Assembly: GCF_044647545.1 (NCBI RefSeq)
Contig: NZ_CP172818.1
From: Escherichia coli
GTDB lineage: Bacteria; Pseudomonadota; Gammaproteobacteria; Enterobacterales; Enterobacteriaceae
Reading direction: 5' to 3' (one strand)
Length of the DNA stretch: 64,000 nucleotides
This document shows, one piece after another, positions 5,902 to 30,111 of the stretch. The notes beneath the pieces are model-generated. The model was not told the origin of the DNA. It made no database searches and saw nothing but the letters and a program-made list of their open reading frames with translations. Within the stretch, counting starts at the first letter, position 1. Each line of letters opens with the position of its first letter. Both the position numbers and the translations under genes were made by a program.

Positions 5902-6837
5902 TTATTTCACTTCAACCACATTCAGTCGTAACTCATCCAACTGATTTTCATCTTCTTCAGGCTGCCAACCCGCCGGTTGTAGAGGGATCTCTTCGCGATC
6001 AAACGCCAGATCACCCCCGTTAACCACTTCAGAACCGTGGGTAATGCCTTTGAAATCGAACAGGTTGGTATCGCACAGATGCGACGGCACCACATTCTGC
6101 ATCGCGCTGAACATCGTCTCGATACGCCCCGGATAACGTTTATCCCAGTCACGCAACATGTCAGCAATCACCTGACGTTGCAGGTTAGGCTGTGAACCGC
6201 ACAGGTTGCACGGAATAATCGGGAACGCTTTTGCATCGGCAAAGCGCTGAATATCTTTCTCGCGGCAGTAGGCCAGCGGACGAATAACGATATGTTTGCC
6301 ATCATCGCTCATCAGTTTCGGAGGCATACCTTTCATCTTGCCGCCGTAGAACATATTTAAGAACAACGTTTGCAGGATATCGTCACGATGGTGACCCAGC
6401 GCGATCTTCGTCGCTCCCAGTTCCGTTGCGGTACGGTAAAGAATTCCGCGACGAAGACGAGAACACAGTGAGCAAGTGGTTTTGCCCTCCGGAATCTTCT
6501 CTTTCACGATACCGTAAGTGTTCTCTTCCACAATCTTGTACTCAACGCCCAGTTTTTCAAGATACTCGGGCAGAACGTGTTCCGGGAAGCCCGGTTGTTT
6601 TTGATCGAGGTTGACAGCCACCAGCGAAAAATTGATTGGCGCGCTTTGCTGCAAATTGCGCAGAATCTCCAGCATGGTATAGCTGTCTTTACCCCCTGAG
6701 AGGCAAACCATGATGCGATCGCCTTCTTCAATCATATTGAAGTCAGCAATGGCTTCGCCCACATTACGACGCAGACGTTTTTGTAATTTGTTCAGGTTGT
6801 ATTGTTCTTTCTTACTAATTTCTTGATTTTCTTGCAT
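5902..6837 (-). CDS. ttcA: tRNA 2-thiocytidine biosynthesis protein TtcA (5' end formed by the prophage junction)
   Basis: 311 aa; PP-loop SGGKDS and CxxC motifs; first ~16 codons lie in the att repeat. Confidence 0.9.
6788..6830. repeat. Prophage attachment-site core repeat, integrase-proximal copy
   Basis: 43-bp exact direct repeat ttgttcaggttgtattgttctttcttactaatttcttgatttt, also at 29887..29929. Confidence 0.75.
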
Positions 6838-6888
6838 TATTTCAGTTCTCTGGTACTAAATGGGGCAAATTGGGGGCAAACTTTGCAA

Positions 6889-8119
6889 CTACGATAACCG
6901 CGCATTCAACATGGCTATCTGTTCGTCGTTCATGTCATCAATCCACATACCGTAAATTTCATACACCATCTGCGCAGTTTCATGCCCCATTTGGCTGGCT
7001 ATAAATGCCGGGTTCGCTCCTGCCGTCAACAGCCAGCAGGCAAAAGTATGCCGCGTATGGTACGGATTACGGCGGCGAATACCAGCACGTTTTACTGCTG
7101 CATTCCACCTTGCCCCCAAACTGCTTACCGAGTAATAAGGTTTTTGTTTTCCGTTACACACCCTGGGCATGAAAACAAAATGCAGTTTTTGCTTTTCGGT
7201 TCTGCATACTGCCGATAATAAAAGGTGACGACTTTTGCGATGATGCCCGGTCAGTTTGTATTGCTCCTTCAGTGCTTCAAGAGCAGGCTGCAGTAGTGTT
7301 ACTGTTCGGATCCCGGCATTTGTTTTTGGGGGACCGAACATATCGAGCCCTCGTCAGGTTTCTTCTGACATTCACTATTCCCTTTTCGAGATCCACATCC
7401 TCCCACGCCAGAGCTGCCAGTTCCCCGTGACGAAGTCCTGAGTAAACGGCAAAGTTCCACAAGTTCTCGCTATCTCCTTTTTCACTTTCCATTAATGCAT
7501 TGAATTCTGTTTTAGATAACGGATCAGGCTTTATTCTGTTCGCTGTAATTTTTTTACTCCTTCAAATGGTTTGGTTGATATAAATCCGACTGATACGCAA
7601 AACGCAACAGCGAACAGAGCAAGGCAATATCGTATCAACTGTGCGCACGGTTCTTCCTTTTTTGTTGGATCTTGGATTATCCAGGTAAAGCGTTTCTCCA
7701 TGCAGCAGTTCATTCCGGTAGTTTAAGATATCGCTATAACGAATATGTGATATCGGGGTACTTTCACAAATTATTATTCTGAGTGTTTTTAATTGTGATT
7801 TCGTTTTCTTCATTGTGTTTGTTGTTAACTCTGTCTCTTTAATTTTTGTCCAGATATCACAAAGCTCTCCGAACGTTTTTATGACTCTCGTTGTCACCAT
7901 TTTTGCCCCAGTGCTGGACTGGGGAAAACGTCTTAAATACTCAAATTCACCGGAGTTTATTTCATGAACTATCAGCGCTCTTAAATTTCCGGCCTTTTTA
8001 ATATTACTGTTTGTAATCTCCCAGCCTTTTAATGTTTCCCGACATCGTTTTCCTCGAAACATGAACCAGATGCGAATGTATCTACCTCTAATCTCGACAC
8101 CTGTTGGTAATTTAGACAT
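6889..8119 (-). pseudogene. intR: Tyrosine integrase, frame-disrupted in this sequence
   Basis: Integrase-like translation split over ORFs 6889..7341, 7277..7492, 7531..7713 and 7562..8119 in different frames. Confidence 0.75.
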
Positions 8120-8120
8120 A

Positions 8121-8336
8121 TCATGAGTCTTTGATAAACTGATTTATCTTTGGATAGTTGTACCAGATAATCCCTCGTTTGCTGTCTGGCTTACCTAAAG
8201 GAGATACTCGTTTGAAGTGGAAGCCCTCCACCCAACAGTTCTGGCGGTATGCTTCAATTTGTCTGGCCCCCAGACCAGTGCGAAGCATCAGGCCGTATTC
8301 AACCATCCACTCTTCATTAAAGATTACTTGTGCCAT
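8121..8336 (-). CDS. xisR: Excisionase-like protein
   Basis: 71-aa ORF ([10 protein letters not shown]...) immediately upstream of integrase, overlapping arrangement. Confidence 0.8.
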
Positions 8337-29153: not shown

Positions 29154-29882
29154 GAAGATATTCCTTAAAATATTATTGATTTTCATTGCGATATTGTATG
29201 TCTGATTCAGGATATGTTGACTTATACATCGGTTTTGTCTGGTTATTGGATATGCCAATCCCTAATTTTATTAGAGCATGACTAAAAATGCTGAATATGA
29301 TAAGGAGCGAAGTGATTATCAGTATGCTGTTCATATAGCCTCGAATTAGTAATGTGTTATATATGATATAGTTGACAATTTTTATCCTGGGTGTTCTTAA
29401 AGTTCGTAGATAAACATTGTCGTTTCAGGTATACAGGAATGCTAACAGGTGGCGGCAAAAATCAGGCGGTTTATGGCGCAAGCTGAAGTGGCAACTGCAA
29501 ACTATCTTATGCAGAGACTCTACACGGATTGGGTTTAAAAGTATACATAGATAACAGTTTTTATCTGAAGAAGAAAAATATCAAGGTGATATAGCCTATA
29601 TGCCTTTGATGCGGAGGAATGAATGTGATGGGAGTGATGTATCTGAATAGTTGAAAAACCGCAGTCACGTCGTATGCAAGAACGTGCTGCGGTTGGTTTG
29701 ACTTTGATTGAGACGTTTTGGAATTTTTTTCGGTGGCAAAAATGGGGCAAAACGCTGCAAAAGGGGCAAAAAAGGGGCAAAAAAAGAGTGGATTATCGTA
29801 GCTTATTGTTGTCGCTGATGATATTTAACACATTGAAAAATAAGTAAAATACTTATGAGTCAGAGAGTTGTGATTTTTGCCC

Positions 29883-29936
29883 TTACTTGTTCAGGTTGTA
29901 TTGTTCTTTCTTACTAATTTCTTGATTTTGCGACAT
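29883..29936 (-). pseudogene. ttcC: Remnant of displaced original ttcA 5' end
   Basis: ATG at ~29936 reads [17 protein letters not shown] then stop at the att repeat boundary. Confidence 0.5.
29887..29929. repeat. Prophage attachment-site core repeat, distal copy
   Basis: Identical 43 bp to 6788..6830. Confidence 0.75.
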
Positions 29937-30111
29937 TTAAAAGCGACTCAATTCGTTATATGGCATCAGAAGAGTATGCGTCATGCCGGAACGCCCAGCA
30001 TAAGAAATCTGATATAAAAACTGTGGCGTGTATGGTACGGATTAGAGGGGAAAATGTCAGCACATTTGCGAAATGAATCAAAAAGCCCGCAGCAATGTGC
30101 GGGCGTTAGTG

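Follow-up and report, generated by a model that had tools for sequence, protein, structure and literature searches.

The GGGGCAAA repeats at both ends of the Rac-type prophage in the window (the whole 64-kb stretch of E. coli DNA that was analysed) are putative arm-type sites of the integrase IntR, a reading that we hold with a probability of about 0.8. It is favoured because the repeats form non-random clusters, are conserved family-wide, match an integrase that carries the PF12167 domain, and are not shifted as an array by the excisionase XisR. The features of an arm-type system that can be looked for in sequence are all present, namely an arm-binding domain, sites on two arms, conservation and matches to bend sites. 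Among the cryptic prophages of E. coli K-12, Rac is the best known, and it has kept the ability to excise; its relatives in the IntR integrase family include Shiga-toxin phages and Salmonella Gifsy-2. The putative arm sites, together with the geometry of attP, provide a concrete and testable model of integration and excision for these elements. If it is true, the family signature would delimit attP and the prophage ends of medically important phages from sequence alone. Arm-type sites are the expected kind of element and imply no new mechanism; for the IntR family they are undescribed in the searchable literature. In that literature, outside which most subscription journals fall, we found no prior description of the motif or of arm-type sites in Rac, Stx phages, Gifsy or phiCTX, and no published assay of IntR binding to these sites or of their requirement in recombination.

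The element is a Rac-type cryptic prophage of ~23 kb inserted in the 5' end of ttcA. In gene order, ttcA is followed by intR and xisR, and the far end consists of tfaR, pinR, ydfK/ynaE and ynaM, then uspF and ompN. The features are as follows:

5902-6837, minus strand: ttcA, the prophage target
6788..6830, no strand assigned: attL copy of the 43-bp att identity, an exact direct repeat, within the ttcA 5' end
6816..6828, minus strand: IHF-like site AATCAAGAAATTA, a perfect match to WATCAANNNNTTR, located between the 26-bp core and the P' pair, with its start 50 bp from the first P' unit
6861..6881, plus strand: int-proximal (P'-arm) pair of putative sites, tGGGGCAAAt / tGGGGGCAAAc, 11 bp apart, 8 bp from the intR stop codon (6889-6891) and 31 bp from the core
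6889..8119, minus strand: intR, tyrosine integrase with an N-terminal arm-binding domain, in three ORFs in the window
8121..8336, minus strand: xisR (ydaQ), excisionase, Pfam DUF1233, with its experimental role taken from PMC4632033
29733..29786, plus strand: int-distal (P-arm) array of five 9-11-bp units, GGTGGCAAAAA / GGGGCAAAAC / GCTGCAAAA (degenerate) / GGGGCAAAAAA / GGGGCAAAAAAA
29826..29838, minus strand: second IHF-like site TTTCAATGTGTTA, one mismatch to WATCAANNNNTTR, between the core and the P-arm array
29887..29929, no strand assigned: attR copy of the 43-bp att identity, an exact direct repeat

In K-12 the identity between attL and attR extends over only 26 bp (6788-6813), and three bases differ in the K-12 attL. 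Because the att identity is 43 bp here, the IHF-like site at 6816-6828 is duplicated at 29915-29927. The 26-bp core contains direct repeats rather than obvious inverted ones. At 6814-6822 the K-12 attL bases match the phage-type sequence of PHB10 and those of the window do not; from this comparison, the attL of this strain looks to have been converted to the bacterial type. Over the distal arm, the window and E. coli K-12 MG1655 are 100% identical.

The surroundings of attR show several further features. The DNA from 29887 onward, comprising the attR core and its flank, is also found in E. coli genomes without Rac. Just right of attR, in this 'bacterial' flank, lies a 22-aa IntR-like integrase relic (30017-30082, minus strand, FDSFRKCADIFPSNPYHTRHSF, corresponding to IntR 339-360), which looks like the fossil of an earlier ttcA-targeting prophage. 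Directly adjoining the attR core on the other side is an inverted GGGCAAAAA (29875-29883, minus strand) that is kept in most E. coli Rac variants, is degenerate in strain U90, and is not present in PHB10. This inverted copy may belong to an XisR site or a core-type site. The stretch left of the att module (29554-29696) holds a GC-rich hairpin, and its Rfam match to the Shigella sRNA CssrB is weak and sub-threshold (28 bits, against a gathering score of 76). Within it, 29640-29696 is ~91-98% identical to intergenic DNA of HK97, mEp460 and other lambdoid phages.

The distal cluster spans 29733-29786 and contains three exact copies of GGGGCAAA (29744, 29763 and 29774, all on the plus strand), one near copy with a single mismatch (GGTGGCAAAAA at 29733) and one degenerate copy (GCTGCAAAA at 29754). 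Read contiguously on the plus strand it is GGTGGCAAAAA-TGGGGCAAAAC-GCTGCAAAA-GGGGCAAAAAA-GGGGCAAAAAAA, which can be taken as two putative pairs of IntR arm-type sites with a degenerate unit between them. An earlier, sequence-only reading of this DNA had counted at least four copies of (A/T)GGGGCAAAA here; the cluster is real, although that count was slightly generous. The two further copies it had placed at 6862..6881, beside the integrase-proximal core, are both exact, beginning at 6862 (tGGGGCAAA) and 6873 (gGGGGCAAA) in the sequence aaaTGGGGCAAATTGGGGGCAAAc. All units of both clusters are on the same strand and are spaced by 9-11 bp. Both clusters lie inside the prophage, each less than about 160 bp from the 43-bp att repeat (31-50 bp from this core for the P' units and 100-154 bp for the P units). 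GCCCC is absent from the core, and the repeat units, in both attP arms, lie outside it and are unlike it.

The clustering of these repeats at the att ends is far beyond chance. In 300 dinucleotide-preserving shuffles of the 64-kb window, two or more same-strand copies of GGGGCAAA within 60 bp were never obtained (0/300, versus three copies observed), nor was a pair of GGGGCAAA exactly 11 bp apart (0/300, versus two observed). For the shorter GGGGCA, one pair at this spacing occurred in 4 of the 300 shuffles. The real 64 kb contains two, and these are only those at the two att arms.

A motif search in related att regions, which the sequence-only reading had named as a check, was positive in nine relatives. 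The alignment of layouts includes nine attP or att-end sequences with integrases 43-69% identical to IntR, among them PHB10, phi367 (Stx-type), CharmingMan, Gifsy-2, Fraca, IdasGreatGrand, mEp460_ev081 and a Providencia phage. The TGCCCC/GGGGCA unit, its pairing at 11 bp, its orientation and its distance from int are conserved in the nine, and several of these use core sites other than ttcA yet keep both unit and layout. The DNA between the conserved elements (units, IHF-like sites and core) is not conserved. In the common layout, the int 3' end contains or borders a pair of TGCCCC units 11 bp apart, an IHF-like site follows 50 bp on, and then the core. Beyond the core there is in some cases a second IHF-like site, and one or two further TGCCCC pairs are located ~200-210 bp from the first pair.

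The attP of Rac was built by joining both prophage ends, and positions were counted from the first base of the int stop codon in the int direction. TGCCCC units fall at 13 and 24, then at 211, 222 and 241 nt from the stop, with degenerate units between and after the latter. PHB10, a complete phage genome with an integrase 69% identical to IntR and a ttcA-like core, carries units at 11, 22, 208, 219, 238 and 250, and thus has the same five-unit P-arm layout as Rac; the arms otherwise align poorly. Two P-arm pairs are also seen in phi367 (Int ~43-44% identical to IntR; units at -58 and -47, both within the 3' end of int, followed by 153, 164, 184 and 195) and in CharmingMan (-61, -50, 159, 189 and 200). 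Measured from the first P' unit, the P-arm offsets are 198, 209 and 228 in Rac, 197, 208, 227 and 239 in PHB10, 211, 222, 242 and 253 in phi367, and 220, 250 and 261 in CharmingMan, with a TGTCCC at 209. In IdasGreatGrand, Fraca, mEp460_ev081, the Providencia phage and Gifsy-2 the P' pair is in the int 3' end and the second pair starts at 206-208. Recognisable arms were not found in one Halomonas phage and one Pseudomonas phage (~30% identity to IntR) or at the start of the Klebsiella phage 2 record.

In every relative examined, the P' pair either follows the int 3' end directly or lies within it. It is kept in ttcA-integrated IMG/VR relatives (Int 65-71% identical), where the rest of the short arm is variable; most of the 80 IMG/VR contigs are trimmed at the int stop, and these P' arms come from five only. 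In the 43%-identity clade the pair shows up at protein level as a conserved 'AP..PQ' integrase tail. Stx-type and related phages carry it in the coding 3' end of int (2440-2461 in L005, 2430-2454 in L006 and ~2431-2447 in L007). Since the pair is inside the coding sequence, the 'AP..PQ' tail of Stx-type integrases represents a DNA-level constraint.

Homology of the distal arm among E. coli and phage records begins at ~29727-29734, exactly at the first unit; other Rac variants have unrelated DNA to the left of it. Four units of the array (1, 2, 4 and 5) are conserved, and unit 3 is variable and degenerate. In strain G3 one 11-bp unit is missing from the array. This absence and the degeneracy of the third unit indicate that not every unit need be a site.

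A scan of viral contigs with the loose pattern TGCCCCN{4,7}TGCCCCN{10,30}TGCCCC returned at least 120 loci, and among the matches listed 116 of 120 are without an IntR-family integrase (tblastn), the pattern being too loose for this collection to weigh against the arm-site reading. Some of the loci are GCCCC/GGGGCA clusters ~55-330 bp downstream of distantly related tyrosine integrases with 23-25% identity (L165 198-237, L216 10599-10638, L189 379-417 and 614-630, and L183 5292-5400), and two of these clusters adjoin a tRNA-like core. The use of GC-rich arm units may extend beyond the IntR family.

The arms are separated from the core by candidate bend sites. An IHF-like match with no or one mismatch is found at offset 49-50 in seven of the nine attP sequences, and another at offset 138-141 in four of the nine (Rac, PHB10, where it is perfect, phi367 and the Providencia phage), both counted as sequence matches only. 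The second block is conserved in the P-arm alignment.

The integrase carries a domain suited to such sites. IntR of K-12 (411 aa) matches Pfam Arm-DNA-bind_2 (PF12167) over residues 5-69 with an E-value of 3.9e-26, and also contains a SAM-like core-binding domain and a Phage_integrase catalytic domain. PF12167/DUF3596 is the arm-binding domain of the IntBPP-1 subgroup of tyrosine recombinases, whose members include the integrases of a Stx2a phage, Gifsy-2 and BPP-1 (Smyshlyaev et al. 2021, PMC8138268); that study classifies proteins only, as putative integrases, and arm sites are not defined there. The presence of this domain, conservation in relatives and the failure of XisR to shift the array all support the initial suggestion of integrase arm-type sites. 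A model of IntR residues 1-80 (mfa6aa613d410) has as its best structural matches the GCC-box-binding domains of eukaryotic AP2/ERF proteins, which likewise read a GC-rich box.

In the window, seven indels relative to K-12 break intR into three ORFs. The best match to this stretch among the complete E. coli genomes in the collection is 98.6%, and none shares the allele. The frameshifts could be either real decay or sequencing error. Because intR is frameshifted, the putative arm sites in the window have probably lost their activity and are relics, except where Int is provided in trans.

A different protein could be responsible for the conservation of the repeats. Excisionase sites normally lie on one attP arm, and lambda Xis polymerises on the tandem repeats X1-X1.5-X2. 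By analogy, the array might consist of sites for XisR, a recombination directionality factor, polymerising on tandem direct repeats. The helical spacing of these repeats is typical of excisionase sites, and a DUF1233 excisionase is present next to int in all relatives examined, each of them motif-bearing, so that comparison by itself does not tell Int sites from Xis sites. XisR also binds an attR fragment. However, Liu et al. (PMC4632033) found by EMSA that purified XisR shifts a 294-bp AttR probe and not a 291-bp AttM probe. Mapped to the window by their primers, AttR corresponds to 29717-30010 and AttM to 29596-29886. AttM contains the whole array, and AttR differs by adding 29887-30010, which places the XisR requirement at or beyond 29887. 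The array is therefore not bound by its cognate excisionase in this assay (the sequence is the same in K-12). Nor are the units confined to one attP arm, as they occur on both and include the pair abutting or inside the int 3' end. In phiCTX the paired-repeat layout is kept and the motif differs along with a divergent Int, which also argues against XisR. Int is favoured over Xis because of the one published EMSA and the presence of the motif on both arms, and we regard recognition of the array by XisR as improbable. The Rac transcription factor YdaT was also considered as the binder and was rejected, its own box being TTGATT-N6-AATCAA.

The array could also be maintained for a physical property of its DNA. 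Helically phased A-tracts are a classical signature of intrinsic curvature, and the distal array contains five (A5, A4, A4, A6 and A7, starting at 29738, 29749, 29759, 29768 and 29779) at spacings of 11, 10, 9 and 11 bp, the highest 10-11-bp A-tract periodicity anywhere in the 64-kb window. The array might then be merely intrinsically curved DNA with a structural or nucleoid-protein (H-NS/Fis) role and no specific recognition of GGGGCA. However, the portion conserved in relatives is GCCCC and not the A-tract (e.g. TGCCCCACAGATGCCCC, TGCCCCATCCATGCCCC and TGCCCCACTGGTGCCCC), and the proximal pair has A3 runs only. Since the A-tracts are not conserved outside the Rac/PHB10 clade and GCCCC is, curvature appears to be an add-on and not the primary function, at most an extra property within that clade. 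To judge from their phasing, the five A-tracts probably do add intrinsic curvature to the Rac distal array, but curvature as the whole explanation seems very improbable. Still less probable is that replication slippage has generated the repeats as a neutral 11-bp minisatellite, or that they belong to a small gene. Strain G3 lacks exactly one 11-bp unit, which is variation of the slippage type, but motif, pairing and position are kept in phages whose arms are otherwise unalignable, and this holds against a coding role as well. Two ORFs do overlap the array: one of 57 aa on the plus strand (29674-29847), annotated as a 'hypothetical protein' by PGAP in some RefSeq genomes (strain AH65), and one of 81 aa on the minus strand (29535..29780) with a TTG start. 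However, neither has a match in a Pfam search, no gene is annotated between ynaM and ttcC in K-12, and a mosaic breakpoint at ~29730 together with the 11-bp indel disrupts both frames in other strains. The same observations support the sequence-only view of the minus-strand ORF as non-coding. Rfam gave no match over 29733-29790, and promoter and terminator scans over the array gave no signal; thus neither a known RNA family nor a protein-coding gene was found over the array.

With the repeats taken as putative IntR arm-type sites, a mechanism can be proposed. IntR would be a heterobivalent tyrosine recombinase whose C-terminal domains act on the core inside ttcA and whose small N-terminal domain, of three strands and a helix, binds the TGCCCC(A/T) units. 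In the prophage state the sites would be split between attL (6861-6881) and attR (29733-29786), and in the excised phage both clusters would flank the core in one attP. Read in the int direction, this attP would present the P' pair just past the int stop, an IHF-like bend, the 26-bp core, the second IHF-like site and two pairs, with the two distal pairs of Rac ~200-240 bp from the first pair. An 11-bp spacing puts units on one helix face, which leaves room for two Int N-terminal domains next to each other. Bending by IHF at +50 and ~+139 would fold the arms back, allowing arm-bound Int to reach the core and form the intasome, with the C-terminal domains of the same protomers engaging the core in ttcA. 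XisR would then bias the reaction towards excision. We infer the N-terminal domain of IntR as the binder, IHF at both sites, and the stoichiometry.

A broader proposal, which we offer tentatively and at somewhat less than even odds, is that the whole PF12167 (IntBPP-1) family, including Rac, Stx-converting phages, Gifsy-2 and many lambdoid coliphages, may share one undescribed arm code. This code would consist of 11-bp pairs of TGCCCC in a fixed geometry (P' pair, IHF at +50, core, P pair at ~+200-210), with core specificity varying. The P-arm sites of the Rac/PHB10 group would additionally carry phased A-tracts whose curvature may replace a host bending site.

One system for comparison is lambda Int, with its arm sites P1, P2 and P'1-P'3 and its IHF sites H1, H2 and H'. 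As in lambda, the Rac units are short direct repeats outside the core on both attP arms and unlike the core, adjacent sites are about one helical turn apart, and the P' sites directly adjoin the int 3' end. Both systems have bend sites, candidate ones in Rac, between arms and core, and the integrase N-terminal domain consists of three strands and a helix. However, the Rac motif is TGCCCC(A/T), whereas the lambda arm-site motif is C/AAGTCACTAT, and the N-terminal domain is PF12167 in Rac and PF09003 in lambda. The Rac sites also differ in occurring in pairs, one in P' and one or two in P, all in the same orientation, in having one recognisable IHF-like site per arm, and in being known from sequence.

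A second comparison is the phiCTX attP, which has 11-bp pairs of TGTTCCCA on both sides of the annotated core, downstream of int, where the record annotates R1/R2 repeats; IHF sites are annotated as well. The phiCTX Int is ~31% identical to the phi367 integrase. In contrast to Rac, the unit is TGTTCCCA and not TGCCCC, distances to the core are shorter, and the phage is P2-like and integrates into a tRNA gene. IntR itself resembles the IntBPP-1 subgroup (PMC8138268), with which it shares PF12167/DUF3596, a likeness of domain and sequence identity. IntR is 43-44% identical to Stx-phage integrases, and Gifsy-2 and the Stx-type phages carry the same TGCCCC pairs.
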